Below are positions 2,970 to 26,704 of a stretch of DNA of 32,000 bases, piece by piece. Source of the DNA: Candidatus Saccharimonadota bacterium (GTDB lineage Bacteria; Patescibacteriota; Gracilibacteria; UBA1369; 2-02-FULL-48-14). Position numbers and translations under genes: made by a program. The stretch lies in assembly GCA_965230905.1 (NCBI GenBank), contig OZ246396.1:60001-92000 (forward strand), read 5' to 3'. Every line of letters begins with the position of its first letter. Within the stretch, counting starts at the first letter, position 1. The notes under the pieces were generated by a model. That model was not told the DNA's origin. It ran no database searches and saw only the letters and a program-made list of their open reading frames with translations.

Positions 2970-3527
2970 ATGCTTTCACCCCAAGAAATCGTCCCTCACG
3001 ATACTCATCCATTTATAGGAGTGAGACCCGGAATCGTGAATGGCATTTATAAGATCAGTAGTGAAGTGAAACACTGGCATGATATGGCTTTGCCTTTTAA
3101 GGCTATTATTGGAGAGCTGGAAGAGGATCCTTCTATTTTGAAAATGAGCCTGACTGCCAACCCAGATGTGCACTTCGACGCCATGCTTCCTCACAGTCAC
3201 CCCATAGGATTTTTAGTTTTCGCCATTGAGCAGCGCGACGAACCAACCATTGTGTGCGCATCTTCTCAGCCTGTGTTTACTGCGAGAGCACAAAAACCTA
3301 GTTTCGAATCTGTGAAAGCTGTTCAAGCTAAGCTTCTTGAGCATGAAGCTGCTTTCGCTCGCACTTGGAAACAATCCACCAAAGTTGACCACTACGCCAC
3401 TCGGGTTCCCTTTCTTTATCTATTACCTGGCACCGGACATTTTCGAAGAATAGAAAATGAAGACCAGTTCACTACACGGTCGAATCTTAAAGGCTGGATG
3501 TATGATGCCTTTGGGAATAGTCTTTAA
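2970..3527 (+). CDS. hypothetical protein (orphan)
   Basis: 185-codon ATG ORF with its own promoter-like sequence. It looks more AT-rich than its neighbours. No recognisable motifs. Its N-terminal ~50 aa resemble those of 15308..15781 (see findings). Confidence 0.55.
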   Translation: MLSPQEIVPHDTHPFIGVRPGIVNGIYKISSEVKHWHDMALPFKAIIGELEEDPSILKMSLTANPDVHFDAMLPHSHPIGFLVFAIEQRDEPTIVCASSQPVFTARAQKPSFESVKAVQAKLLEHEAAFARTWKQSTKVDHYATRVPFLYLLPGTGHFRRIENEDQFTTRSNLKGWMYDAFGNSL

Positions 3528-4252
3528 AGTCCCAACTGCTTTCTAATTTCTTCCGCTTTGTTTTGGTCTTCCTGACCTTTGCTTTCGGCTTTTACGGCGA
3601 GTTCGAGGTCTTTCCAGTCGGCGGCGTGCTCATCTTCGAGTTTTTTGAGTTGGGCGCCGTGCTTTTGAGAAAGTTCCACGAATTTGCTGCGTTCTTCATC
3701 AAAGATGCGAATCAGTTCGTCCACTTGTTCTTGGCGGAGCTTTGGAATCGAATCGATGATTTTCTTTTTCTCGTCCTTAGTGAGCGAAATGGACCCGGCC
3801 AAAAGGTTCAGGAAACGAGCTTCATCAAAGTTGAGGCTGTGTGCGGGAAGTTTGATGCTGGTTGTGAAGCTGGCCATCCGTGCCCCGAACACGTAGTTGG
3901 GGTCAAAAGGAGGCTGAGCAGGGTCGGCGGCACCACCGGCATAGGGGTCCCCCATCCCAGCCATGGGTGGTTGAGGAGCCATGGGCGCGGCTGGCGCTTC
4001 ATACACGGGCGCCTGGTAGGCTGGCGCTGCAGGAGCCGCATAGGGCTGAGGATAAACCGGAGCCTGATACGGGTCGTAGGCAGTAGTTTGGGGGGCAGGC
4101 GCTACCGGCTGGACCGGCATTGGAGGAACGGGTGGGCTTGGTGGCGTTGGCGGAGTGGGTGGATTTGTTCCACCTGTAAAACCGCTTCCCTGTTGAGCGC
4201 CAAAGGAAAACCCACCGCTGTATGCTCCGTTTTGTGATTGATCGTCAGCCAT
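3524..4252 (-). CDS. hypothetical protein: disordered Gly/Phe- and Pro/Ala/Tyr-rich N-terminal two thirds plus a conserved helical C-terminal module
   Basis: The track ORF runs to 4315, but the first ATG is at 4252 (MADDQSQNGAYSGGFSFG...). Low-complexity PPTPPTPPSPPVPP and APVY repeats are followed by SLTKDEKKKIIDSIPKLRQEQVDELIRIFDEERSKF. This last stretch is homologous to the core of 26746..27216. Confidence 0.7.
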   Translation of the reverse strand: MADDQSQNGAYSGGFSFGAQQGSGFTGGTNPPTPPTPPSPPVPPMPVQPVAPAPQTTAYDPYQAPVYPQPYAAPAAPAYQAPVYEAPAAPMAPQPPMAGMGDPYAGGAADPAQPPFDPNYVFGARMASFTTSIKLPAHSLNFDEARFLNLLAGSISLTKDEKKKIIDSIPKLRQEQVDELIRIFDEERSKFVELSQKHGAQLKKLEDEHAADWKDLELAVKAESKGQEDQNKAEEIRKQLGL

Positions 4253-4344
4253 AGATATTAGGTTGGTCGGTCTGCCTTGGGCAAAAATTCTAAGGAATTG
4301 AGTACAAATAATCAAGACTTCATCTATTTATTCTACCACAAAAA

Positions 4345-5722: not shown

Positions 5723-5799
5723 GGACGATTAGCTCAGCTGGTTAGAGCGCCACATTGACATTGTGGAGGTCGGTGGTTCGAGTCCACTATCGTCCACCA
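5723..5799 (+). tRNA. tRNA-Val (anticodon GAC), CCA encoded
   Basis: Hand-folded cloverleaf. Acceptor GGACGAT/ATCGTCC; D arm GCTC-AGCTGGTTA-GAGC; anticodon arm CCACA-TTGACAT-TGTGG; variable loop AGGTC; T arm GGTGG-TTCGAGT-CCACT; discriminator A; then CCA (5797-5799). Confidence 0.92.
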
Positions 5800-5854
5800 T
5801 CATCTTTTGATGTATCTGTTTTTATGATATAATGAATAGATTAAAACTCCCCTA

Positions 5855-6802
5855 ATGATTGATGCAGAAGGAACCTATCGACAAGTGAGTTGGTATAAAT
5901 ATGACGAAGGACCAAAGCCATTTTGTGCTCAAGTGGGAGATCAATTATTAAGGGCAGAAAGTCTAGATGGGCTTCGAGGTTTAGTCGATGGAGAACTAGA
6001 TGGTGCAAGGAACGATATGCATGGAAGGATTGTGGTAGCAATGGATTCAGAGCCATGTCCAGGAGTGAATAGAATACCTAGATATTCAGATGTATTAAGG
6101 AAGTATATGCCAAGAGATGGTATTACCCCTGAAAGACCTAACCCTAAACTTTTAACAAAAGAAAATAGAGACAGGGTGCTAGAAATAACTGAAAAAGCCA
6201 CCGAGGAATACGGTAAAAAAACGACTGCTGAACCTCAAGAGGGACATCTGGTAGAAACTAGGGAGAATATTGGTAGTGGCAGGTCATTTACAATGAGCGC
6301 AGAAATATTCAAAACACCCAATCATTTACTAAAGGAAGATGTCACTTTTCATATCGATGAAGGTACAAACTACCTAGGGCATTTCACATTATCTCGGGAG
6401 GGCGAACTCAGTAAAAATATATGGAGTCTTTTCCACAGAGAAATCTATAAAAAAGAGTATACGGGAGGAAGTGGGCATGAACTAGGTGCTAGCAGAATTT
6501 TAACCGATGCCATGTATCTTTTTATTCAAGATCGAGCGGATAGAACTGGAGAAGAAGTAACTGTATTAATTGAGTTATCTCAACCTCATGTTGCAATTTG
6601 GGCTTTAAAAGAAGGGTTTCAGCCAGAAAATGGTGAACAAGAGAGAAGATGGCAACAAATGCAAAATGGAAACGATCTCGTTATGAAAGGTGACCATGTG
6701 TATCCAAATACCATTCCTCCAGGTTTTGGTTGGGATAAATTTGATTATGAGGCAGGATTTCGAATCAGGTTTAAAAAAACATTTCAACCAGTTGTGATTT
6801 GA
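5855..6802 (+). CDS. hypothetical protein (island gene A); possible GNAT-like C-terminal half
   Basis: 315-codon ATG ORF, 21 nt downstream of a TATAAT (5828-5833). It looks AT-rich and uses AGA/AGG Arg codons. The stretch IYKKEYTGGSGHELGASRILTDAMYLF ... LIELSQPHVAIWALKEGFQPE loosely resembles acetyl-CoA-binding motif A and the following strands of GNAT acetyltransferases. This is a weak call made by eye only. Confidence 0.6.
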   Translation: MIDAEGTYRQVSWYKYDEGPKPFCAQVGDQLLRAESLDGLRGLVDGELDGARNDMHGRIVVAMDSEPCPGVNRIPRYSDVLRKYMPRDGITPERPNPKLLTKENRDRVLEITEKATEEYGKKTTAEPQEGHLVETRENIGSGRSFTMSAEIFKTPNHLLKEDVTFHIDEGTNYLGHFTLSREGELSKNIWSLFHREIYKKEYTGGSGHELGASRILTDAMYLFIQDRADRTGEEVTVLIELSQPHVAIWALKEGFQPENGEQERRWQQMQNGNDLVMKGDHVYPNTIPPGFGWDKFDYEAGFRIRFKKTFQPVVI

Positions 6803-6822
6803 ATGAGCTCAGTCGTATTTTA

Positions 6823-6862
6823 AAAAGTTCTAGGATCATCCTCTTAGCCCCACCAGATCGAC
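6823..6862 (+). repeat. island inter-cassette element, copy 1
   Basis: AAAAGTTCTAGGATCATCC-tctta-GCCCCACCA-gatcgac. It is identical to copy 2 at 29 of 33 positions, and all four differences fall in the 5-nt spacer. Confidence 0.8.
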
Positions 6863-6866
6863 TTTA

Positions 6867-7697
6867 ATGTCAGTTTATGTTTTAATATTGTCTTTTACTG
6901 TACCTCACATGCTCGAGAGACAAACCGTTTACGCCATTGGATCAGCGCACGCCATGAAAGGCGCAGACATAAACCATCCTTATGAAGTTCCTGTACAAAC
7001 GGATCTGATGGCCCACTTAGTCCGAACAACAGGTGATGTTAGCCTTTTCATCGAAGGATTAGGATTGGATGGCTGTAGAGGTATTAAAGAAATAATGGGA
7101 AGACTTGAAACAGATCCACGTAGACTGGAGCAGTTAATTCCTAAATTTTTTGCGCAAAGAGACTTCGTGATGTGGGAACAAGCCATTAAAATGCGTGCCC
7201 TATTGGAACTAAAAGCAGAAGGGCATTTCATAGAACCCGTCCCAACGGAAGTTGATCAAAAATCTCGAGATGCTGCACTTCGTTTTACTTATCGTAACCC
7301 AACTGAGGAGGACTTTGGGCTATTGGAACGATATGCTGAAGAGGTATTAGGAGATAGAAGTCTTGTTTTAGCGGCACTTGAAAAAAGCACGGGAGATAAG
7401 GATAAAAGTTTCCTTGAGTTGGTACAGGGCATGCGCGCTCACTACGGAGACTTAGAAATGGCACGAAACATTGAGACTCGCGGAGGAGCAAACAACTTGC
7501 TCATGTTTGGGAAGGGACACCCTCTGAAGGGTTGGGGTGAAAGGTTTCAGCTCTCCCGTTTAGACATTTCTGGGTACGAGGGCGGAGTGGTTGGAATTTC
7601 CGGCTCCTTGCCTGAAACTATTCGACCAAGTTTAAATGACTTTCGTGCGACTGAGCCCAGAGCACTCGTTTTGACGGGCTGGGTTCAGGCAAAGTAA
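6867..7697 (+). CDS. hypothetical protein (island gene B)
   Basis: 276-codon ORF from ATG 6867. An alternative ATG at 6909 (MLERQ...) fits better if the TCGACT-17-TTTAAT promoter-like sequence at 6858-6886 is real. No recognisable motifs. Confidence 0.6.
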   Translation: MSVYVLILSFTVPHMLERQTVYAIGSAHAMKGADINHPYEVPVQTDLMAHLVRTTGDVSLFIEGLGLDGCRGIKEIMGRLETDPRRLEQLIPKFFAQRDFVMWEQAIKMRALLELKAEGHFIEPVPTEVDQKSRDAALRFTYRNPTEEDFGLLERYAEEVLGDRSLVLAALEKSTGDKDKSFLELVQGMRAHYGDLEMARNIETRGGANNLLMFGKGHPLKGWGERFQLSRLDISGYEGGVVGISGSLPETIRPSLNDFRATEPRALVLTGWVQAK

Positions 7698-7734
7698 AAG
7701 TTCTAGGATCATCCGCGGTGCCCCACCATTGACC
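7696..7734 (+). repeat. island inter-cassette element, copy 2
   Basis: AAAAGTTCTAGGATCATCC-gcggt-GCCCCACCA-TTGACC. It begins inside the TAA stop codon (7695-7697) of gene B. Confidence 0.8.
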
Positions 7735-7779
7735 TTAGCTTATACTTTACTTGTAAACGGTAAGACCTGTTAGTGGTTC

Positions 7780-8072
7780 CTAGGTGTTCCCTTCCATCGG
7801 TTGGCCACAGCTTAGGGCATTCGAGCTAACAGGCTCGTTTTCGTTTAGATGCAGACCCTGCTCTGTTGTGATGTGTTTACGAAATAGCTTGTACCATTCA
7901 AGGTCGTTCTTTTCATGTTTCCTGAAAATGCCCCATGCAAATAGGTCAGCAGCTTGAAGTTCAAAGTAAAGGCCTCCAGTTCGCTTTTCAACGCTAAAAC
8001 TTCAGCGTAGCATTTCGTTCGTAACGTTTTGACATTGTTTGTGGATTTTGCGTATATGGATATAATCAACAC
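7780..8072 (-). pseudogene. possible frameshifted gene remnant
   Basis: Two overlapping minus-strand frames together span the gap. One is the 75-codon TTG-start ORF 7845..8072. The other is a start-less open frame 8001..7780 (…GLYFELQAADLFAWGIFRKHEKNDLEWYKLFRKHITTEQGLHLNENEPV…), which reads like real protein but contains no ATG/GTG/TTG until near its 3' end. No family recognised. Confidence 0.25.
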
Positions 8073-8089
8073 TTACTAAGATAAACAAT

Positions 8090-8833
8090 ATGACACTACA
8101 ACTTAGAGAAATGTGGGTAAGGGGCGAAACAACACCGCTTCCTTGCAGAGGATATCTTCACGCAAAGGCACTTGAAAATATTCTGACAATTACAGGAAAA
8201 TCTGCAAGAAAAGCTATGATGAAACCTGGTCCATTTGATGAAGATGAATTTCGAACAACACTAGAAAAACGCTTCATAGAACAGAACGAGGCACACAAAG
8301 GGGCGAGTTGTAATGCAGCACTGGATTCTTTATCGGCTGAAGATCTTAAAAGTTTGTGGGGCATGGAAAGTAGTGGAGGAATGCCTGGCGTGGCTTTTGC
8401 TGATAGAAAATTGTTTTTATGGGCAGATACTTGCCCAGTAACATCGGAGGAACGTAGAAATTTATGTTATAACGAATTAGGGGAACAAGAATCAGACATA
8501 TGGTATCCCGGTTCTTTTGGAAATGCTGATTCTTTAGCTAAATCTTGGGGAGTTAGTCTGTTAAGACCTCAAGTTCGTCATGAAATGCAAGGAAAGTTTC
8601 CTTTAGAAACAGATGGAAGCTTAGTTTGGTTAAATACTCGTGATGCAATTCTTCGTGAAGGTAGAGCATTTAGATCACACATTGCTGGAGTAGACAGATC
8701 GGATTATTCTATACGTAATCACACAGATTATTGGGGGTTTAGAACTGAAAAATTAGTAGCCAATAAATTTCCAGCAAAACAATCTTTATTTGCCAGCTTT
8801 ATGGAGGGTTTCAGTGGCGGACAATTTGACTAG
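8090..8833 (+). CDS. DUF4256-like protein (island gene C) with an N-terminal extension
   Basis: The stretch LEKRFIEQNEAHKG … LWGMESSGGMPGVAF … FLWADTCPVTSEERRNLCYN … LVWLNT … YWGFRTEKLV follows the order of conserved blocks I recall for DUF4256 (ME.TGGEPDVV, F.DCSAESP.GRR..CYD, SW..T, GFRGSLKV). It also aligns with 18802..19434. Confidence 0.7.
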   Translation: MTLQLREMWVRGETTPLPCRGYLHAKALENILTITGKSARKAMMKPGPFDEDEFRTTLEKRFIEQNEAHKGASCNAALDSLSAEDLKSLWGMESSGGMPGVAFADRKLFLWADTCPVTSEERRNLCYNELGEQESDIWYPGSFGNADSLAKSWGVSLLRPQVRHEMQGKFPLETDGSLVWLNTRDAILREGRAFRSHIAGVDRSDYSIRNHTDYWGFRTEKLVANKFPAKQSLFASFMEGFSGGQFD

Positions 8834-8861
8834 GATCATTCCCTGTGCCGCACCATTGACA
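8830..8861 (+). repeat. island inter-cassette element, copy 3
   Basis: CTAGGATCATTCC-ctgt-GCCGCACCA-TTGACA. The span from CTAGG to ACCA is 26 nt, as in copies 1 and 2. The TAG stop of gene C (8831-8833) lies inside it. TTGACA-17-TAGCAT follows, about 20 nt upstream of the GTG start at 8909. Confidence 0.75.
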
Positions 8862-8908
8862 CCCGTATCGAATAGTTTTAGCATGATCTCTTTGCATAAA
8901 AATTATCT

Positions 8909-9904
8909 GTGACTCCAAGTATTTTGGACGCCTACGGGCCCTATAAAGAAAAAATCCGCGGCGCAGTTCGATCGGGTCATATTATTTGTCCAGATGGCTC
9001 GCCCGATTATGGCCCTTTTGATAGACACGGCCACTTGCCTAACAAAACTGACGAAACTCTGTTTTTGCGGGCGGGGGCCTTGAGAGAATGCAATACTCGA
9101 TCTTTGAATGCTGGTGCCGTAGCGGTTCTTGAACGCCTTTTCAAAGAAGATGTTCCCCGTAGATTTCTAGAATTGGGAGCAGGTTCCGGAAAAGGGTCTT
9201 TTGATGCATGGAAATTGGCGGAAGTTGCTCAAAGGACTCTTCTAATCGATACGGTGAGTAAAACTCCCGTAAGCCCCTATCACGGCTTAGAACAGAGCGT
9301 TCTTAAAATCGCTCATGATCTGCCACCTGATATTGTAGAAAGAACTGCAGGCGGCTTGAGGGACCTTGTGGCCCAAACCTTGAAGTATCGAAATGATCCG
9401 GCCTACCTTCGTTTACGTTTAGACGCGGCTTTAGCCTTATCTGAACTCGTTGCAGGACGTATTTTTAGAACTTTGAATGAGCCTTTTATAGAGCATCAAT
9501 ATATTGGGCGTTTTAAGGAACTGAACTTGGCTCCTGGGGCGTATGATCTTATTTATGATCGTTTTGGCGTCGTCTCAACAGGCGTGTTCACAACATATAA
9601 TCTCGCGATCCTGAAAAAAACTCTCGGCCTTTTGAATCGAGAGGGAATATTTGTTTGCGGGGCCTTGCGTGATCGTTGCGAATTTGTGGAGTGCGGTGCT
9701 GATGACGCTGTGGACTTAGGAGAATTTATTTGTGTTTATGGGCCGGATAATTCTGACGATGAGGACTATGTGGGTTTATTTTTCCATAGAGAAAGTACGT
9801 GTGCAGCTCAGTTGTTGCCCTTGCTTGAACCTCTGACGCCTCATCATGGGGTTTATTCTCCGGAAGATATGGGACCAGTCCTAGAGAGGCTAGGTACTAC
9901 TTAA
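8909..9904 (+). CDS. putative class I SAM-dependent methyltransferase-fold protein (island gene D)
   Basis: GTG-start ORF of 331 codons. FLELGAGSGKGS fits motif I (E/DxGxGxG), LLIDTV fits the acidic end of beta-2, and YDLIYDRFG and LLNREGIFV fit motifs II and III. The ~85-aa N-terminal extension is unassigned. Confidence 0.6.
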   Translation: MTPSILDAYGPYKEKIRGAVRSGHIICPDGSPDYGPFDRHGHLPNKTDETLFLRAGALRECNTRSLNAGAVAVLERLFKEDVPRRFLELGAGSGKGSFDAWKLAEVAQRTLLIDTVSKTPVSPYHGLEQSVLKIAHDLPPDIVERTAGGLRDLVAQTLKYRNDPAYLRLRLDAALALSELVAGRIFRTLNEPFIEHQYIGRFKELNLAPGAYDLIYDRFGVVSTGVFTTYNLAILKKTLGLLNREGIFVCGALRDRCEFVECGADDAVDLGEFICVYGPDNSDDEDYVGLFFHRESTCAAQLLPLLEPLTPHHGVYSPEDMGPVLERLGTT

Positions 9905-11564
9905 ACCAACCCCCAATTTTGCTTGCCCAGCCTTTCACTGCAGCCGTAGCTTTTTGTGTGAAGGATGGCTCAGGTGCGGGCGCCACTTTAGGTGCAGGAG
10001 CGATGACCGGTGCCTTTGCTACTTGAATAGCATGTGCTTCAGGAATATCTACTACGCTCGCGAGGCCCATTTGTGCAGGAGTGCTGATTGGAAGAACCTC
10101 TTCTTCAACGAGGTAGTCGGTCAAATCTTCATCCTCATCTAGGGCAAGTTCTTCATCTTCCACGACGGATGTGGATGCAAAGTTCATAGGTTCTGGAGCG
10201 TCGTAAACGTTGCTTTGTTCAGGCACGAATTCAACGAGAACGGGTGTAGGCTGAGTGAGGTCTGTTGCGGTTCCAAGATTCATTGGCTCTGGTGCGTCGT
10301 AGAGGCTTGCAGATTGAGCGCTTGGGTACTGGAAGTGAGCCGGTGAAGGCGGAGGTGTAGCTACGAAGCTAGCAACCGTTTCTTTGACTTGTTCTGGAGT
10401 GATCTTTGCGAGCTCGGCTTCAGCTTGAGCTGGATCTTCTGCGATGCGTGAATCTTTAATGAGGGCGATTTGTTTAGCCAGCGCTAAAGCGGTTTGGTCG
10501 GAATTGTTTGGATCGTCTACTGAGTCGAGATTTTCGTCTGAAGCAATATGTGCCAAAGCATCATCGAGGTTTGTGATGGGCGTAGGTGAAGCATCAAGGC
10601 TGGCTAAAACTGCATCGTATCCACGCCACTTTTCTAGTTTTTCAACTACTAAATCCAGGGCGAGTTTGCTATCTCTCCAAGGGCTGCCCAAATCTTGATA
10701 AGAGTTGGCATCTGCATAGAGTCCGCTCACGAGTTCATTGGTAGCAGCGGCTGTGAGACGAGTATCTTTTGAGGGCATTTGAACTTCCACTTTTCCATAG
10801 AGCGTGGTGGGTTCAACTGGAGAAGCTTCACAAGGAGTTTCTTCCTCGACGCATTCTCCATCCTCTGGCAACGACGCGAGGTAAGCAAGCTCTGCGTCAT
10901 TAGGCCCTTCACACACACGAGAATCGTCCATTTCTTGAGGGCGGTTTGCATAGAATGCTGCACCTAAGGCTCCACCAGCTAGCAAAGCACCCATTGCAGC
11001 AAAAATTTTCGAGCGATGATTGTTTAGAAAACCTGTAGATAGAGATTTACCTTCAACAAGCTTAACTGGTTCAAATGCTGGCGCAGAGGCTGGTTTTACA
11101 CCAGGTTTTGTGGGCTCATCGGCATCCCAGTCAGCTGTGTCAGCCTTTTTCGTTTGAGGCAGTGGAGCTGGCGATAAAAAATCAGGATCTATTGAGTTTG
11201 GATTGAAATCAGGAAAGTAGGTTTTAATTGCGCTGAGCAAAGAGTCCCTTCTATGTGCTGGCGTGTCGGCTGGCAAGCCTAAATACACTTCAATCAACCC
11301 TTTTCCGCTTAAGTTTGTAAACGCTTTCCCTCTTTCTGTAACGCTCAAAGGGTCAGCCCCACCTTGACCAAACCCATGATACAAAAACTTTACCCCCTTG
11401 GCTTCAGCTTCATGATTAGGCTCTTCTGAGATGTCTACCCTGATTCTAGCAGATCCTTCATCATCCTTAAACTCTTCTGAGTCGTCTACTAGGACTCCAG
11501 CGGTTTCTTCATCGATTCCACTTGTATCATAGGATTTTTGGACTGTAGAAGAAAGTTTCATCAT
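9897..11564 (-). CDS. hypothetical acidic single-pass membrane protein
   Basis: 555-codon ATG ORF with one central hydrophobic helix (IFAAMGALLAGGALGAAFYA). The very acidic C-terminal half carries a duplicated YDAPEPMN motif and an Ala/Pro-rich tail (APVIAPAPKVAPAPEP). Its TAG stop overlaps gene D by 8 bp in convergent orientation. Confidence 0.7.
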   Translation of the reverse strand: MMKLSSTVQKSYDTSGIDEETAGVLVDDSEEFKDDEGSARIRVDISEEPNHEAEAKGVKFLYHGFGQGGADPLSVTERGKAFTNLSGKGLIEVYLGLPADTPAHRRDSLLSAIKTYFPDFNPNSIDPDFLSPAPLPQTKKADTADWDADEPTKPGVKPASAPAFEPVKLVEGKSLSTGFLNNHRSKIFAAMGALLAGGALGAAFYANRPQEMDDSRVCEGPNDAELAYLASLPEDGECVEEETPCEASPVEPTTLYGKVEVQMPSKDTRLTAAATNELVSGLYADANSYQDLGSPWRDSKLALDLVVEKLEKWRGYDAVLASLDASPTPITNLDDALAHIASDENLDSVDDPNNSDQTALALAKQIALIKDSRIAEDPAQAEAELAKITPEQVKETVASFVATPPPSPAHFQYPSAQSASLYDAPEPMNLGTATDLTQPTPVLVEFVPEQSNVYDAPEPMNFASTSVVEDEELALDEDEDLTDYLVEEEVLPISTPAQMGLASVVDIPEAHAIQVAKAPVIAPAPKVAPAPEPSFTQKATAAVKGWASKIGGWFK

Positions 11565-11614
11565 TTATGATTAAGATGGATGCGGATTATAAAACTTAAA
11601 TGTGCCTATGTCAA

Positions 11615-14600
11615 CTACAAAGCTGTGCACCACTCGCATTCGCCACAGGCGGTGAACTCGTCGACATCGAGAAAACGGAGATTTTGGATGTCGTCGTAGA
11701 CGGATTTGATCTGGGTGCGGAGGTCGGCGAGCTCTTCGGGGGTCGGGTAAATGGGCTTGCGTATATAATCGCCTGTTTTGCTCTTTTGCACAAAGTCTAT
11801 TTCGCCGCTGACCATGGTGTAGGGGAATTTTTTGGAGTTGTCGCAGAGGAGCTTGTAGAAAAGGATCTGACGGCGGTACTCCCCTTGCGGACCGAATTCG
11901 GACTTTTTGTTGTCGGGCATGCCGGTTTTGTAATCCACCACATGCACCGACCGGTCGGCTTCGTCCTTGAGTTCGATCTTGTCGAGTTTTCCGGTGATGG
12001 GCACTCCATCCACATTCACGCCATGGGAGCGGAAGTCGTATTCAACCAGAACATCGGGGCGGAAAGTGTCGCGGTAATGATCGTAGTAATCGGCCAGGGT
12101 GCGTTTGCCGAGGTCGAGGCCGCCACGAAAATCTTGCAGGGAGAGGATTTCGCGTTGGAGGTGTTTTTCAAACTGATCGAGCACGGTTTCTTTGGCGGGT
12201 GTGCTGCCTTCGCGGACTCCTACGTAGAGGTCTTTGAGGGCTTCGTGAACAGCGGTTCCAAAAGCGAGGGATTTGGACTTGGCTCGCGGCACGCGCAGCA
12301 CATTGTTGTAGTAAAAAAGTCGCGGACAGCGGAGGTAGTTATTGAGGTGGGTCACGCTCATGGTGTAGTTCTGCAGGAGGCTCGCGATGTAGGCGCGGTG
12401 GTCTTCGGTGAGGCTGGGCTTGGGGACTAGGAAGAGCGTTTGTAGATGTTCGAGAGCTTCTTGTTCAAGGTAAGTGGTTTCCAAGTTTTGCTTCAACGAG
12501 TCGTCTATTTCGCTTAGGAACATGGAAGGAACGGTCGGTCGGCCTTGATCGTTTTCTTTGGGATACGTGAGGGTAACGGATTTTTTTGCACGGGTGATGG
12601 CCACAAAAAATAGTCGGCGTTCTTCTTCATTTTTCTCATGTGGCTGCGTGACTTTGAGCAGCGTAGCGGGCAGCTTGAGTTTGGCGTGGTCGGGCGCGTT
12701 GCCCCAGTGGCGGTCGACGGCGTTCATTATAAAGACGTGCTCGTACTCGAGCCCCTTGGAGCGGTGCGCGGTCATGAGGCAGACGGCGTCTTTGTTGGTG
12801 ACGAGTTCCTGCGCGGGCAGACTGAGACCGTTTTCTTTGAGCAGGTCGAGGTAAGCGATGAAATTCGTGAGCGTCATGCCAGGGTTGGCGCGGTTCCACT
12901 GTTTGAGTTCGGCGAAAAGACTGTTGAGGCGATTGAGTTCTTCGAGCTGATTTTCTTGCGCGAGGATGCGCGTGAGGTAGCCGCTGTCCTGGATTAGCAG
13001 ATCGAAAAATTCAATGAGTGGACGGTTGATGCTTTCTTTATGCCAGCTCATGAGCTTGTCCGCAAAGTCGCTGAAGGCGGGGTTTGCTTTCATGGCTTCG
13101 AGGAAGCTTTTTCGGTGGGCCTCGCGGGTGAGCTTGGCGATGCTGAGCGAATCGAAATCCCAAAAGTCGTAATGCAGAATGGTGAAGAGATGCGATTCGT
13201 CTTCGGGGTCAGCGAGGTAGCGTAGAAGGTTGAGGAGTTTTTGAACGCTTTTGTCATTGAGGAGATCCTGGCCGGCGGAAAGATGGAAAGGAATCTTCAT
13301 GCGTAGGAAAAGTTCCACCAGGCCTTCGGCTTCGCGGTTGCTGCGGTAGAGAATCGCAATTTCAGAGGGCTTGGTGCCGTCGGCGAGGAGACGCTGGATT
13401 TCTTTGGCCAGGAAATAACGCTGCGAGTCAGCGTTGTCGAGTTCCGCGACGCGGATGGGCTGCGCGGGGTGCGGCACGTTGGAGTGCAGCGCTTCGAATT
13501 TTTCGTCGAGGAATTGAGCGAGGTTTTGTTCACTGTGGGCGATGAGCGACTGCGCCGCATCAAGCACGGTTTGCTGGCTGCGGTAGTTCTCGCGGAGCGT
13601 AACCACTTGCACGGTTTTTTTGTAGAGCTGGTAGAAGTAGAGCAGGTTTTCGAGCGAGGCGCCCTGAAAGCGGTAAATGGATTGCTTGTCGTCCCCCACC
13701 ACGAAGATGTTTGGGTTTTCAAAAAACTCGCCGAGGAGGCGAACCACCTCGTTTTGAGCACTGTTGGTGTCTTGGTATTCGTCCACCAGAATGTATTGGA
13801 ATTGCTCTTGGTAACGGGCACGGAGTTCTGGATTTTGCTTCAGTTTTTCCGTCACAAAACTGATCATATCTTCAAAGTCGTAACGGCCGCGGCTGCGCAG
13901 CATGTCTTGGTAGTTTTTGTAGATTCCGCAGAGGGCGAGTTGTTTGGGAATTTCGCGCTGCCATTCTTCAAACGCATCCTTGAGGGCGCTCTTCATTACG
14001 GTGCGATTTTTTTTGTCGTCGGTGTCTCCGTCCAAATAGGCCGCGAAGGGCGTGCCAGTGAGTTCAGTTTTTATTCTTTCGAAATCGGCGGCGGCGAGCT
14101 GGTTGGCGTGTGTGCTGACGAAGGCCGTTATGGTTTCGGCGTAGCTGGCGATGAGCGCCTCCCCTTCTTGAACCACGGCTTGCAGTCGCTCGGGCGATGC
14201 GTTTTCACGTTTCAAATCTTGAATGGCCTTAGTGATGTCTTTCAAATAAAAATAGGGACTGCCAAAGGGACGGAGCGGCGTGTTTTCGCCGAGTTGGTCG
14301 AGCAGTTCGCGGAAAAACTGAATCCGCTCCACTTCGGTGAGGGCGCTGAGCTCACGGGCGAAGAGAAACTCCGTCGGGTAATCCTGAATCACTTCATTAC
14401 AGAAAGAATGGAAGGTGTGGATGCGCACGCCGTACGCGGTTTCGCCAATAAAACTGAGCAGACGTTTACGCATGGCCACGGCGCCGGATTCGGTAAAAGT
14501 GAGGCAGAGAATGTTGTGCGGCGCGGCTTGGGTTTTTCGTAAAATTTGCGCGATGCGCAGGGCTATCATTTGCGTCTTCCCCGTCCCGGGACCCGCCAAA

Positions 14601-14680
14601 ACCATCACCGGTCCTTCTATCTGGTCCACCGCTGATTTTTGTTCCGCGTTCAGCTGGTCATAGGCGGCTTCAAAGTTCAT
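11615..14680 (-). CDS. UvrD/PcrA-type SF1 helicase fused to a C-terminal PD-(D/E)xK nuclease with a Cas4/AddB-like Cys cluster
   Basis: Helicase motifs in order: LAGPGTGKT (Walker A), ILVDEYQDTN (II), VGDDKQSIYRFQGA (III), LRENYRS (IV), MTAHRSKGLEYEHVF (V) and FFVAITRAKKSV (VI). The C-terminal nuclease shows RCPRLFYY (first Cys), GKLDKIEL…VHVVDYKTG (D…D/E-x-K), QILFYKLL (QxxxY) and a terminal CGECEWC. Confidence 0.9.
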   Translation of the reverse strand: MNFEAAYDQLNAEQKSAVDQIEGPVMVLAGPGTGKTQMIALRIAQILRKTQAAPHNILCLTFTESGAVAMRKRLLSFIGETAYGVRIHTFHSFCNEVIQDYPTEFLFARELSALTEVERIQFFRELLDQLGENTPLRPFGSPYFYLKDITKAIQDLKRENASPERLQAVVQEGEALIASYAETITAFVSTHANQLAAADFERIKTELTGTPFAAYLDGDTDDKKNRTVMKSALKDAFEEWQREIPKQLALCGIYKNYQDMLRSRGRYDFEDMISFVTEKLKQNPELRARYQEQFQYILVDEYQDTNSAQNEVVRLLGEFFENPNIFVVGDDKQSIYRFQGASLENLLYFYQLYKKTVQVVTLRENYRSQQTVLDAAQSLIAHSEQNLAQFLDEKFEALHSNVPHPAQPIRVAELDNADSQRYFLAKEIQRLLADGTKPSEIAILYRSNREAEGLVELFLRMKIPFHLSAGQDLLNDKSVQKLLNLLRYLADPEDESHLFTILHYDFWDFDSLSIAKLTREAHRKSFLEAMKANPAFSDFADKLMSWHKESINRPLIEFFDLLIQDSGYLTRILAQENQLEELNRLNSLFAELKQWNRANPGMTLTNFIAYLDLLKENGLSLPAQELVTNKDAVCLMTAHRSKGLEYEHVFIMNAVDRHWGNAPDHAKLKLPATLLKVTQPHEKNEEERRLFFVAITRAKKSVTLTYPKENDQGRPTVPSMFLSEIDDSLKQNLETTYLEQEALEHLQTLFLVPKPSLTEDHRAYIASLLQNYTMSVTHLNNYLRCPRLFYYNNVLRVPRAKSKSLAFGTAVHEALKDLYVGVREGSTPAKETVLDQFEKHLQREILSLQDFRGGLDLGKRTLADYYDHYRDTFRPDVLVEYDFRSHGVNVDGVPITGKLDKIELKDEADRSVHVVDYKTGMPDNKKSEFGPQGEYRRQILFYKLLCDNSKKFPYTMVSGEIDFVQKSKTGDYIRKPIYPTPEELADLRTQIKSVYDDIQNLRFLDVDEFTACGECEWCTAL

Positions 14681-15307: not shown

Positions 15308-15781
15308 ATGGACAGAAAGCCTTTGATAGTGCCTCCTCATGACTTTACCTTTACAGGAGAGCGCATAGATATTGACGGTCTTGGTGTACACAAATTGTCC
15401 ACTCCGCCTACACACGAGCGATCTTTGCCTATGCAAGTACTGGTTCGTCAAAGCATGCTCATGGCCTTAATGGATAAACCCGGTCTTTTAAACCGAAATG
15501 GAGCTACACAAAGTGACTTTAGTCTAAAAATACCTTTTACATCACCCGCTCTGCAAGATTGGGTTTTGCATCTTTTACCTAGCCCCGACAAGGAGCAGTT
15601 CCCAACTGATTTTCTGGGATTGCTGGCCGGCGAAGGAGTATTAAAATGTCTACAGGGTGGCCGTGTTTTACAGATTCAACGAAAAACTTTAGATGACGCA
15701 GGCTTAGCCCTGACACATTCGGCCGTACTTCGAGTGAGCACTCCTGATTGGTGTTGGGAAAACCCGCAGGGAACTATTTAA
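15308..15781 (+). CDS. hypothetical protein (orphan)
   Basis: 157-codon ATG ORF with no recognisable motifs. The N-terminal ~50 aa resemble 2970..3527. Confidence 0.5.
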   Translation: MDRKPLIVPPHDFTFTGERIDIDGLGVHKLSTPPTHERSLPMQVLVRQSMLMALMDKPGLLNRNGATQSDFSLKIPFTSPALQDWVLHLLPSPDKEQFPTDFLGLLAGEGVLKCLQGGRVLQIQRKTLDDAGLALTHSAVLRVSTPDWCWENPQGTI

Positions 15782-18801: not shown

Positions 18802-19434
18802 CTAGACCTCTAGCGAGCAGCGGAATCCATAAGCCAGACTGTGATCGAACGCATGAGCGTTGCGGGAAAAGCCAAGGTGCCCATACTTCGCGTATCTAGT
18901 TTTTGGAACTTTTTTGGTGGTTCGAAGCCAGCTGAAAGTGTGTTCGTCGAGCATAATCCCTTTGGATCTGAACGTGTCATAGACCGAAGGCTCCATGAGT
19001 TCGGCACCGAGTTGAGCGGCAAGGACTTCAGCCTCATAAAAATTGACATTACGGTGAGCAATTGGTGCCTCGGCGGAAAGGTCATCGAAACGGAAATTGC
19101 CGTTTGAGAGTTTGGCGGTCACCGTGAGCTCTCCGTGCTCGATGAGGCGACCCAGGATGGTGAGTTTCTCAGGAGATTTTTTGAGCTTAGCTTCGACTTC
19201 GGCCCACTTGATCCCGGTTTGAAGTTTAGCTTCTTTGGCTTCAAAATTGGCTTGGAGCGTTGAGATCGTCTGAAGATCTTCGGGGGAAAGCTGCGTTTGG
19301 CCTTCAAAGGAGGCTAGCAGTGCCTGGAGAGCAAGATTTTCTGGCCTCCCTCGTTCAAAAGCTGCTGCAGGTTCGCCAGCACTATCAGGAGAGCCGTTGA
19401 AATGATCTGAGTTGGTTTCGGTTGATTTTGTCAC
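18802..19434 (-). CDS. DUF4256-like protein
   Basis: GTG-start ORF of 210 codons, preceded on the minus strand by TGgTATAAT. The blocks KWAEVEAKLKKSPEKL, FRFDDLSAEAPIAHRNVNFYE, HTFSWLRTT and the C-terminal YGFRCSLEV match my recollection of DUF4256 and align with 8090..8833. Confidence 0.75.
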   Translation of the reverse strand: MTKSTETNSDHFNGSPDSAGEPAAAFERGRPENLALQALLASFEGQTQLSPEDLQTISTLQANFEAKEAKLQTGIKWAEVEAKLKKSPEKLTILGRLIEHGELTVTAKLSNGNFRFDDLSAEAPIAHRNVNFYEAEVLAAQLGAELMEPSVYDTFRSKGIMLDEHTFSWLRTTKKVPKTRYAKYGHLGFSRNAHAFDHSLAYGFRCSLEV

Positions 19435-24820: not shown

Positions 24821-26704
24821 ATGATTGAAACTCAAGGAGCAGAAGCACCGGAAACCCATGGAGCAGAAACCCTGCGTGACCCCACTTTGATTGAGGCGGA
24901 TGACCTTATCCGGGATATTCACAAACAGGAAGAACGGAAAGACAGCCTCCTGGATAAGAATCTTTACCTTAAATCACTGACCAGTACACTGCTTCGTGTG
25001 ACGGAAAAAATCGCCGAAGAAGAAAAGAAAGAGAGTCCAGACAGGAAGAGACTTGAAAGTCTGTATGAGAGAAAAGGCAGCCTGACTGAAGAAAGGAAGA
25101 AAATCGTGGCACTACCCGATGAACAAACCGATGAACGCTACAAGGAAGTGGCGAGCGATATGAAAGCGGCGGCGGCTGAAACCAAGGGGGAAATTGAGGA
25201 GATAACAAAATTACGGGCCCAGAAAACAAGTTTGACCGATCAACTTGCCAATGCCACTACGGATGCGGAGAAAGCTACGTTGAATGGAGAACTCGCGGTG
25301 GTGGAAGCAGCCTTGGAGAAAGCAGAGTTCCAAGGAACCCTTGAGGATAAAGAAAAGATTTTTGCAGCCCGCATCGCTATGGGTAAAAAAGCCGAAGCGA
25401 TGACCGAAGCCGAACATCAAAAATCCTCCACAGCTGCCGACGAGATCTTAAAAAAATCCTTGGACTTCTTCACAGATTCTCCCGCCGAGGAAACCGCGGA
25501 AGCTGAAAATACTGATCCGGACAAAAAGAAAGACGACAAAAAGACGGGTGAGAATAAAACGGATGAGGAGAAGAAGGCTGAACGGAAAGTTATCATTCAT
25601 AATAAGATCGATGACGCTGCATACAAGTTGGCACTTGCGCTTGTGAATACTAAACCCAAAAAGGATGACACCGTCGGGAAAGTCACCTTCGAAGCCAAGC
25701 GCTGGGGCCTCATGGTCCTCACCTTTTTTGGAGGAAATCCCGAGTGGACTCAAAGTCTGACGCCCGAAGAACAAAAAACCCTGGGTATGACGGTGACTCC
25801 AGTAAAGGAAGATGACGGGAAAATCACCTACTCCATCAAATGGGATAAAATTGATCTTTCCGGTCAGGATGTTCAAGACGTCTATGAAGTGGCGTTTGGT
25901 AAAGACGGGTGGACCAAAGAAATGGATTTGCTCAAAGACGACACCAAATTCAGTGAACTTCAAGACCGTGCAGCAGGCATTCCGGCGGACACCACAGATC
26001 CAGACAAGCTCAAATTCAAGGCCTTTGTGGATGCTTTGGAATCAACCGGGGCTAGGGGCGGAACTCTTGTGAAAGACCACATCAATAAAAACGCGGATGA
26101 AATTGTGGAGAAGTTGAAACCAAAACCTGCTCCGGCGCCTACAGTGGCTGCAACAGAATCTACCGAGGCCACTGAGGAGGACATCAACTGGGTGGATGTA
26201 GTTGAAAAAAATAACTTCAATGACAGCACTCCAGTAAAAAATGTTTTCAAAGCCGCTGGATCTACTCTCGAATCCCATTTTAGTAGCATTGACGCCACGC
26301 TTACTGAAGCGATCGCCCAAGGGACGCTTCCGGCTAGCGAGATTGGGAAAATGCTTGCGGACAGTATTAAGACACCCGATACCTTTAAAGGGGTGACCGA
26401 GATATTTGCTGCAAACAATGAGCTCATGAAAAGTCTAGGTTTGCCGGAAACCACGGTCCCTGAAGACCTTATTGCAAAGGCCACCGCAGAGCTCGGCACG
26501 CCTGAAGGATTGTCCCCAAGCATCAAAGCAGACGTTCAAAAGCTATGCGAGGCATTCTTCAAATCTTATCAGGATTTCTGTGGCATGAGCTACAAAGCGT
26601 TGATTGAACTTCAGAAGAGCACTCCTGCCTACGCAGCTGACAAAAAAGAAGTTGATGCGGTCCTTAAAGCTTTGGCCGACAACAATACTCCTGCTACAAA
26701 TTAA
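24821..26704 (+). CDS. hypothetical Lys/Glu-rich protein with a coiled-coil-like N-terminal half
   Basis: 627-codon ATG ORF. Residues ~40-260 are highly charged and heptad-like, followed by a KKKDDKKTGENKTDEEKK linker and a globular C-terminal half. No TM helix and no recognisable catalytic motif. Confidence 0.7.
   Translation: MIETQGAEAPETHGAETLRDPTLIEADDLIRDIHKQEERKDSLLDKNLYLKSLTSTLLRVTEKIAEEEKKESPDRKRLESLYERKGSLTEERKKIVALPDEQTDERYKEVASDMKAAAAETKGEIEEITKLRAQKTSLTDQLANATTDAEKATLNGELAVVEAALEKAEFQGTLEDKEKIFAARIAMGKKAEAMTEAEHQKSSTAADEILKKSLDFFTDSPAEETAEAENTDPDKKKDDKKTGENKTDEEKKAERKVIIHNKIDDAAYKLALALVNTKPKKDDTVGKVTFEAKRWGLMVLTFFGGNPEWTQSLTPEEQKTLGMTVTPVKEDDGKITYSIKWDKIDLSGQDVQDVYEVAFGKDGWTKEMDLLKDDTKFSELQDRAAGIPADTTDPDKLKFKAFVDALESTGARGGTLVKDHINKNADEIVEKLKPKPAPAPTVAATESTEATEEDINWVDVVEKNNFNDSTPVKNVFKAAGSTLESHFSSIDATLTEAIAQGTLPASEIGKMLADSIKTPDTFKGVTEIFAANNELMKSLGLPETTVPEDLIAKATAELGTPEGLSPSIKADVQKLCEAFFKSYQDFCGMSYKALIELQKSTPAYAADKKEVDAVLKALADNNTPATN

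Follow-up and report, generated by a model that had tools for sequence, protein, structure and literature searches.

The stretch of DNA analysed here, called the window throughout, is a 32-kb piece of a 1.3-Mb contig from the Hainich groundwater metagenomes, which carries the label 'Patescibacteria group bacterium' at NCBI. The subject of this study is the interval of 5.8 kb (approximately 5800-11600) that extends in this window from a gene for tRNA-Val(GAC) to a gene for an AddA-like helicase-nuclease, hereafter the islet. Atypical sequence begins at position 5800, immediately 3' of the tRNA-Val gene, which ends at 5799, and four open reading frames (ORFs) follow on the + strand, at 5855-6802, 6867-7697, 8090-8833 and 8909-9904. 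They are named ORF1 to ORF4; a DUF3800-V RNA lies between the second and the third, and the interval also includes a convergent gene with a product of 555 amino acids (aa), called the 555-aa gene (Table 1). The four same-strand ORFs had been listed in an earlier note on this DNA and all of them are present, with the start of ORF2 now placed almost certainly at 6909 and not at 6867, because all of its homologues begin at an equivalent ML(E/N)(K/R)Q. The islet is set among core genes, encoding ProRS, an FtsA-like protein, an S8 peptidase, the AddA-like helicase-nuclease, a NUDIX protein and glycosyltransferases, with DnaX, a Mur-ligase-like gene, LigA, a sortase and MnmA as further neighbours.

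The same note had described a shift toward AT and in codon usage directly after tRNA-Val, and this description holds for every quantity that was computed: GC content, GC content at third codon positions (GC3), the ratio of AGR to CGN arginine codons (AGR:CGN), the Karlin codon bias and the dinucleotide distance all deviate. In segments of 1 kb, the GC content is 0.39-0.46 across 5.5-9.5 kb and approximately 0.50 elsewhere, and the dinucleotide signature distance reaches a peak of 136-157 at 5-8 kb compared with 40-90 elsewhere. The GC3 values of ORF1, ORF2, ORF3 and ORF4 are 0.26, 0.39, 0.24 and 0.38, respectively, whereas those of most flanking genes lie between 0.49 and 0.67 (helicase 0.67, ligase 0.63, dnaX 0.57). 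The AGR:CGN ratio is 46:40 in ORF1-ORF4 taken together, against 50:355 summed over the remaining 24 ORFs and 1:59 in the helicase, and, relative to the rest, ORF1 to ORF4 have a codon bias of 0.71, 0.46, 0.75 and 0.51, against 0.20-0.45 for most core genes. ORF1 and ORF3 (GC3 0.24-0.26, bias 0.71-0.75) are far more extreme than every other ORF of the window, and the 555-aa gene is deviant as well (GC3 0.37, AGR:CGN 6:6, codon bias 0.53).

Table 1. Positions of the features of the tRNA-Val islet and of its two anchors in the 32-kb window (E, E value).
Feature	Position	Strand	Description
tRNA-Val(GAC)	5723..5799	+	Left anchor; ARAGORN; Rfam tRNA, 69.5 bits; 3' end ...GTCCACCA
ORF1	5855..6802	+	315 aa; strict orphan; compositionally most deviant (GC3 0.26, AGR:CGN 18:5)
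Junction copy 1	6823..6863	+	Arm AAAAGTTCTAGGATCATCCTCTTAGCC, then CCACCA, GA, -35-like TCGACT; -10-like TTTAAT 17 nt on; E 7e-10
ORF2	6909..7697	+	262 aa (longest ORF from 6867); small unnamed family
Junction copy 2	7696..7734	+	Arm, CCACCA, TTGACC; overlaps ORF2 stop codon; E 1.7e-12
DUF3800-V RNA	7751..7844	+	Rfam RF02964; within the 393 nt that separate ORF2 from ORF3
ORF3	8090..8833	+	247 aa (205 aa from an alternative start); DUF4256-family protein, Pfam PF14066
Junction copy 3	8823..8884	+	Arm AATTTGACTAGGATCATTCCCTGTGCC, GCACCA, TTGACA, 17 nt, TAGCAT; overlaps ORF3 stop codon; E 5.6e-10
ORF4	8909..9904	+	331 aa; near-orphan; one homologue, P0002, 31% identity
555-aa gene	9897..11564	-	Acidic low-complexity product with one hydrophobic segment; convergent; right part of the variable region
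AddA-like UvrD/PD-(D/E)XK helicase-nuclease	11615..14680	-	Pfam; conserved right flank, outside the islet

The content of the interval was compared with that of a single syntenic relative, L019 (ENA ERZ27247837, 4.2 kb). Its tRNA-Val is 100% identical over 77 nt to that of the window, and both flanks are conserved, with an identity of 72% (aa) for the C-terminus of the S8 peptidase and of 87% (aa) and 85% (nt) for the C-terminus of the helicase, at whose stop codon the homology resumes. Between these flanks the interval measures only 2.8 kb in L019 versus 5.8 kb in the window, and tRNA-Val is followed in order by a gene of the ORF2 family (30% aa identity), an ORF of 112 aa, an unrelated gene of 447 aa on the - strand, which takes the place of the 555-aa gene, and the helicase. 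Neither ORF1, nor the DUF3800-V RNA, nor a DUF4256 gene, nor ORF4 is present in the L019 interval, the genes of which have a GC3 of 0.35-0.47 compared with 0.61-0.71 in the flanks. The accessory character suggested in the earlier note is borne out by this relative, in which the same tRNA and conserved flanks frame an interval devoid of ORF1, ORF3, ORF4 and the RNA. The end of the island at 9925 proposed there was in contrast too short, since the 555-aa gene (9897-11564) is also atypical and is replaced in L019; because L019 has other genes between the same flanks, the variable block reaches approximately 11.6 kb and includes this gene. Taken together, these data lead us to consider with good confidence the whole interval from tRNA-Val to the helicase as a variable and compositionally foreign accessory region, the content of which differs between related genomes.

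The boundaries of the genes in the left part of the islet are marked by a 33-nt direct repeat, AAAAGTTCTAGGATCATCC-N5-GCCCCACCA, present in three copies at 6823-6855, 7696-7728 and 8823-8855, directly 3' of ORF1, ORF2 and ORF3, respectively. The whole element covers approximately 45 nt. The repeat has a CCACCA or GCACCA end as in the tRNA gene, and behind it come TTGAC or TCGAC, a stretch of 17 nt and a -10-like hexamer. Upstream of the -35 box, copies 1 and 2 agree at 29/33 positions. With nhmmer, a profile of the element matches only the three junctions in 32 kb, with E values from 1.7e-12 to 6.8e-10, and the pattern CACCA(N0-2)T[TC]GAC, searched on both strands of the window, is likewise restricted to them; in the other loci it was found at the 3' end of the L019 tRNA only, apart from one chance occurrence in L017. 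At this L019 tRNA 3' junction, CCACCA is followed by TTGACT, 17 nt and TTTTAT. The CCACCATTGAC found at the end of copy 2 is the native tRNA junction in L019, because TTGACT directly follows the CCACCA of the L019 tRNA; this represents an 11-nt identity between copy 2 and the L019 tRNA end, from which copy 3 differs in the first base only (GCACCATTGAC), and the approximately 30 nt that follow copy 1 resemble the approximately 30 nt that follow the L019 tRNA. A long copy of the tRNA 3' end is absent from the window, where the short cores CCACCA or CCACCATTGAC are present at the three internal junctions, and no tRNA 3'-end core was found at the far boundary near 11600. The TTGAC of the core could double as the -35 box of a promoter-like site able to drive the next gene, and copy 3 is recognized by the promoter scan as a promoter-like site for ORF4 (10/12 positions).

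Two simple explanations of the repeats were discarded. Neither strand of the junctions folds significantly as single-stranded DNA (z from -1.3 to +1.2), and an inverted repeat conserved among them was not found, which speaks against attC-like or terminator-like hairpins. The repeats are not displaced former 3' halves of tRNA-Val either, as no copy of the tRNA 3' half was found within 3 mismatches, the arms have in common derived bases not present in the tRNA, and no pairing is possible between their 'acceptor' bases and the 5' strand of the tRNA.

A second relative, L020 (Logan SRR22388172, 1.4 kb), holds an ortholog of ORF2 (82% nt identity) preceded by a variant of the element, after which the -10-like hexamer is TTTTAT. 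The homology of L020 with the window starts at the element, and the contig ends exactly at the position of copy 2. The gene upstream of the L020 element is a different one, weakly methyltransferase-like and not ORF1, which is absent from L019 and L020 alike, and the 40 nt before the arm match those of the window at 11/40 positions, as random sequences would. Beyond the core, L020 and the window are clearly orthologous and have the GA insertion in common. The L020 arm matches copy 2 at 27/33 positions and copy 1, its equivalent by position, at only 24/33, which fits arms belonging to the upstream unit. At 1054-1059 of L020, an in-frame TAA occupies codon 134 of the ORF2 ortholog, where the window has GAA, indicating a pseudogene or a sequencing error.

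The contigs of the Hainich population are 99.7-100% identical and have one common arrangement, the differences between them being gene-calling artefacts. In one Hainich contig of 2x coverage (L003), the first 12 bases, AGGAAAGCATTA, are unlike the window, and the sequence is then identical from 11 nt before copy 2 (window 7685); this start could be an alternative junction or an artefact of the assembly end. Two independent Logan assemblies break inside tRNA-Val (5742-5768; L002, L010 and L013) with an overlap of approximately 27 nt, which is probably due to graph branching at the conserved tRNA and would also fit population heterogeneity at the site. In the JGI metagenomes, the search for synteny of the helicase gave only a high-GC relative of 41% identity, on a contig ending short of the interval.

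To characterize the products of the islet genes, the proteins were compared with Pfam, NCBIfam, PHROGs, PADLOC and PDB sequences, and their homologues were searched among 5.8 billion clustered proteins. ORF1 has zero matches in the five collections and no match but itself among the 5.8 billion proteins. A GNAT-like fold had been supposed for its C-terminal part; neither Pfam nor the PDB sequences gave a match for it, and the AlphaFold2 model built from the single sequence was unusable, with a predicted local distance difference test score (pLDDT) of 38.

For ORF2, the word-indexed search returned the protein itself and one distant homologue, and an exhaustive HMMER profile search led to 26 representatives among 1.84 billion proteins. 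The family alignment shows the conserved residues H14, E/D49, E114, D181, N196, G201 and H204, which would be compatible with a metal-dependent hydrolase as one possibility. None of 25 members has a match in Pfam, the family profile has none in the PDB sequences, the NCBIfam, PHROGs and PADLOC searches with ORF2 were empty, and the structure model obtained from two sequences was unusable (pLDDT 37.5). A TraB/GumN/TIKI-like hydrolase was considered from a GxxH...E...R(D)xxM..N...GxxH pattern; it is supported neither by Pfam with the 25 members nor by the profile search against PDB sequences, and is not claimed here. Genes of the ORF2 family were found in at least five other contexts that lack ORF1, ORF3 and ORF4, one member being a truncated relic, and neither a tRNA nor the element nor an RNA motif is present in these contexts. 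In the case of P0008, a gene of the family, the start is preceded in three independent contigs by a gene-free gap of up to 950 nt (L016 7561-8000, L017 1293-2241, L018 94-1042), in which neither a tRNA nor an Rfam family at the gathering threshold was detected.

ORF3 had been called DUF4256-like in the earlier note, and this label is confirmed by Pfam: PF14066 is matched with 44.7 bits (cut-off 27) and an E value of 1.5e-11, over model positions 3-141 of 173. No mention of DUF4256 was found in a literature search. A second DUF4256 gene is present in the window at 18802-19434 (-), between the glycosyltransferase pair and dnaX; its GC3 of 0.51 is near that of the core genes, its product shows 26% identity to ORF3 over 77 aa only, and no Rfam motif was found near it. 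The DUF4256 genes of Bacillus and Acinetobacter have ordinary metabolic neighbours and no RNA motif. Neither ORF3 nor the ORF2 family has relatives in IMG/VR, the INPHARED phage records or the PLSDB plasmids, and a phage or plasmid origin was rejected on this ground.

ORF4, called Rossmann methyltransferase-like in the earlier note, has no Pfam match up to an E value of 10 and no match to PDB sequences, whether the protein or a two-sequence profile was used, and the NCBIfam, PHROGs and PADLOC searches were empty. The motif FLELGAGSG (hh[D/E]hGxGxG), conserved as FLELGPGAG in the sole homologue P0002, is the only pointer to a Rossmann or S-adenosylmethionine-binding fold, which ORF4 may therefore possess. 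The 555-aa protein has no family match in Pfam, NCBIfam, PHROGs, PADLOC or PDB sequences. Its gene contains in the 5' part an internal 51-nt tandem duplication (11410-11511, 73% identity) and is called differently between assemblies, as 554 aa, as 555 aa, or split into 324 + 219 aa (L014).

The islet proteins are mutually unrelated. Since, in addition, the ORF2 family occurs in its other contexts without the other three genes and ORF1 has no homologues, the earlier idea that the four genes form one accessory system could not be maintained: the cargo genes are unrelated orphans and constitute no single functional system. Four further orphan ORFs of the window have no match in Pfam, NCBIfam or PHROGs, at 2970-3527 (+), 3524-4315 (-), 15308-15781 (+) and 24821-26704 (+), and AT-shifted orphan genes are not confined to the islet, because two small ones among these are also low in GC3 (2970-3527, 0.40; 15308-15781, 0.38).

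The DUF3800-V RNA matches RF02964 over the full model length (1-96) with 49.9 bits in cmscan, versus a gathering score of 37.4, and an E value of 3e-8. Its fold has a minimum free energy of -34.4 kcal/mol (z = -2.9 versus shuffles), and its 3' end consists of a terminator-like hairpin with a T-run, the site being located at 7822-7837. The DUF3800 RNA motifs were defined by a nearby DUF3800 protein gene in either orientation, their function being unknown (Weinberg et al. 2017, PMC5737381), and DUF3800 is an RNase H-like domain that has been linked to retron type VII (PMC7736814) and to Cas12a2-associated loci (PMC10910872). The RNA of the islet resembles the motifs of this group by a score above the RF02964 gathering score and by the terminator-like hairpin at its end, as reported for several motifs. 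It differs from them in that the defining gene is missing: no DUF3800 (PF12686) protein gene was found in any neighbouring ORF up to an E value of 10 nor anywhere in the window, and the RNA is flanked by a gene of the ORF2 family and one for a DUF4256 protein.

As the most economical mechanism for the left part of the islet (5800-8860), we tentatively propose that the 3' end of tRNA-Val was the target of serial site-specific insertion. Very small units of approximately 0.9-1.1 kb, with a single gene each, would have entered repeatedly at this end, and each junction would then be made of two parts: (i) an element-derived arm of approximately 27 nt (AAAAGTTCTAGGATCATCC-N5-GCC) upstream of the distal core copy, and (ii) the duplicated core CCACCA-TTGAC, corresponding to the last bases of the tRNA and the native downstream flank. 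The unit formed by the RNA and ORF3 would have been added first, ORF2 next and ORF1 last, while ORF4 and the 555-aa gene would represent the older content of the locus. The recombinase would be encoded elsewhere and act in trans, or would have been lost, and the array would now be fixed in the sampled population. The units would be of separate origin, because their GC3 differs (0.26, 0.39 and 0.24) and the proteins are mutually unrelated. One of the two possibilities raised in the earlier note, a cassette array serviced in trans, gains concrete support from the presence, at every gene boundary, of a junction element with a copy of the tRNA 3' end and the native flank, for which site-specific recombination could be the cause.

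Several observations weigh against such insertions. Searches of the large ORFs of the 32 kb with Pfam, PHROGs, PADLOC and NCBIfam revealed no family of recombinases, integrases, transposases or phage proteins, in agreement with the earlier note, which had seen no recombinase. With 6-11 nt the duplicated core is short, the element is known from no more than four copies in two genomes, and ORF4 lacks a distal junction. The arm is entirely missing from L019 despite an ORF2-family gene right after the tRNA. The element was found neither in IMG/VR nor in approximately 185,000 species-representative genomes, a set that does not include this metagenome-assembled genome and gave one chance match (L007). 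Neither an empty site with a single core nor a circular form was observed, and there is no sign of present mobility, since all Hainich population contigs share the arrangement. Finally, a repeat of purely regulatory nature would account just as well for the succession of TTGAC, 17 nt and a -10-like hexamer.

This last point leads to the most probable of the alternatives, although we regard it as rather unlikely, namely that the repeats are duplicated copies of a promoter or operator module in which a site of approximately 30 nt for a regulator is fused to a -35 box, placing the orphan genes under common control. The variability of the locus would then reflect a fast turnover of lineage-specific genes, for example by natural transformation and homology-facilitated recombination between the repeats, with no dedicated recombinase. 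Behind each copy, TTGAC or TCGAC is indeed separated by 17 nt from a -10-like hexamer (TTTAAT, TGTAAA, TAGCAT, or TTTTAT in L020), the same arrangement is found after the L019 tRNA, the copies are devoid of hairpins, unlike attC sites or terminators, and the fixation of the array in the population agrees with this explanation. However, the identity of copies 1 and 2 at 29/33 positions upstream of the -35 box exceeds the usual similarity of operators, the promoter-like sites of the region are not above the number in shuffled sequences (7 versus 9.3), no extra copy is present in 30 kb of adjoining genome, and a promoter module leaves unexplained the exact tRNA 3' end (CCACCA), in the same register as in the L019 tRNA.

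With less probability still, the genes could have been inherited vertically as fast-evolving, weakly expressed and lineage-specific genes under relaxed codon selection, their adjacency to the tRNA being incidental. The two small orphan ORFs of low GC3 mentioned above also have a high codon bias (0.44-0.56), the L019 interval is likewise low in GC3 between its high-GC3 flanks, the position beside the tRNA is held in L019 by an ORF2-family gene, and in both genomes a membrane-type gene adjoins the helicase, all of which are in agreement with vertical descent. Against it, the composition of ORF1 and ORF3 is beyond that of every other ORF of the window, the gene content and not the sequence alone differs from L019, ORF2 is 30% identical to its L019 counterpart compared with 72-87% for the flanks, L020 has another gene across the junction, and the junction repeats are left unexplained. 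An RNA-based accessory or defence module, in which the ORF2 and/or DUF4256 protein would replace the RNase H-like DUF3800 partner of the RNA, is very improbable: the Rfam match is solid, the RNA and DUF4256 would lie within one unit if the array were made of cassettes, and the DUF3800 RNAs are defined by a nearby protein gene (PMC5737381) of a family linked to retrons and Cas12a2 loci (PMC7736814, PMC10910872), but no ORF matches DUF3800 up to an E value of 10, PADLOC gave zero matches to defence systems in the window, and no DUF3800-type RNA is found beside the second DUF4256 gene, the DUF4256 genes of Bacillus and Acinetobacter or five other ORF2-family genes.

Returning to serial insertion at tRNA-Val, a more specific form of it can be formulated, which we put forward only as a doubtful conjecture: a hitherto unrecognised, integron-like capture of single genes in Patescibacteria, in which the tRNA-Val 3' end with its flank (CCACCA-TTGAC) would be the fixed site and the non-palindromic arm of approximately 27 nt the mobile site, a recombinase acting in trans inserting promoter-bearing orphan units. 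If this were true, the unit formed by the RNA and DUF4256 would hint at a new protein partner for the DUF3800-V class. The orphan DUF3800-V RNA beside a DUF4256 gene is a curiosity separate from the question of the islet, and its occurrence without a DUF3800 gene bears on the unsolved function of this RNA class.

The bacteria of the Candidate Phyla Radiation (CPR), or Patescibacteria, have tiny genomes rich in orphan genes, and the way in which they gain and exchange genes is poorly understood. The locus described here is compact and clearly delimited: the genes that differ between related genomes are framed by conserved flanks and an identical tRNA, and a recognizable junction sequence marks where one gene gives way to the next. 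Should these junctions be recombination sites, minimal single-gene units can accrete at a tRNA end, and the arm with CCACCA-TTGAC provides a searchable signature for more arrays and for the enzyme responsible. If the repeats are promoter modules only, this is an ordinary variable islet.

Among known systems, the locus shares with genomic islands its position 3' of a tRNA gene, a deviant composition and a variable presence, established here against one syntenic relative (L019), and it differs from them by the lack of an integrase in the 32 kb. The attC sites of integrons are imperfect palindromes that fold as hairpins with R''-L''/L'-R' boxes, integron cassettes are usually promoterless, and clusters of attC sites lacking integrase are known as CALINs. 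Like these arrays, the islet is a series of unrelated, mostly orphan, same-strand single genes with a conserved recombination-type repeat between them and no local integrase, and new units would presumably enter at the end beside the fixed site. In contrast to attC sites, the element of the islet has no significant fold, it includes a promoter-like box, and its core is common to the 3' end of a tRNA and not to attI.

Cis-mobilizable elements (CIMEs) and their accretion at tRNA genes are defined in a review (PMC5704250, reviewing Pavlovic 2004 and Bellanger 2011), where they appear as integrase-less tandem units with att-type boundaries at a tRNA 3' end, thought to depend on a recombinase in trans, as would be the case here. 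Boundaries of this type are found in the islet, the three junctions having the CCACCA(TTGAC) core of the L019 tRNA, albeit a short one. CIMEs are decayed integrative and conjugative or integrative and mobilizable elements that measure several kb and have att sites in which the tRNA 3' end is clearly copied (PMC5704250), whereas remnants of integration or transfer genes are absent from the islet and its units are minimal.

A further close likeness is found in the tandem islands at ssrA in Dehalococcoides, which are bounded by a direct repeat of the 3' end of the RNA gene, with an element-derived motif before the repeat for which the RNA gene has no alignable counterpart (McMurdie et al. 2011, PMC3146451), and of which some units have no integration genes (PMC3146451). 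Both loci are of low GC, atypical in codon usage and adjacent to the downstream end of a gene for a small RNA, in a bacterium of small genome and uncultivable type; both consist of tandem units, each bounded by a repeat of the RNA 3' end, at the main site of strain variability (PMC3146451). A conserved non-aligning motif immediately upstream of the repeat and units without an integration module are also common to the two. The Dehalococcoides islands have a repeat of 20 bp and mostly multi-kb units with a serine-recombinase integration module (PMC3146451), compared with a core of 6-11 nt, single-gene units of approximately 1 kb and no recombinase seen in 32 kb here, and their target is the transfer-messenger RNA (tmRNA) gene instead of tRNA-Val, where the core runs past the RNA gene into the promoter-like box. 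Genomic islands beside tRNA genes, their accretion and units devoid of an integrase are already known, and an array of single genes of approximately 1 kb, delimited in a member of the CPR by a junction element that is not palindromic, would represent at most a new variant of them.

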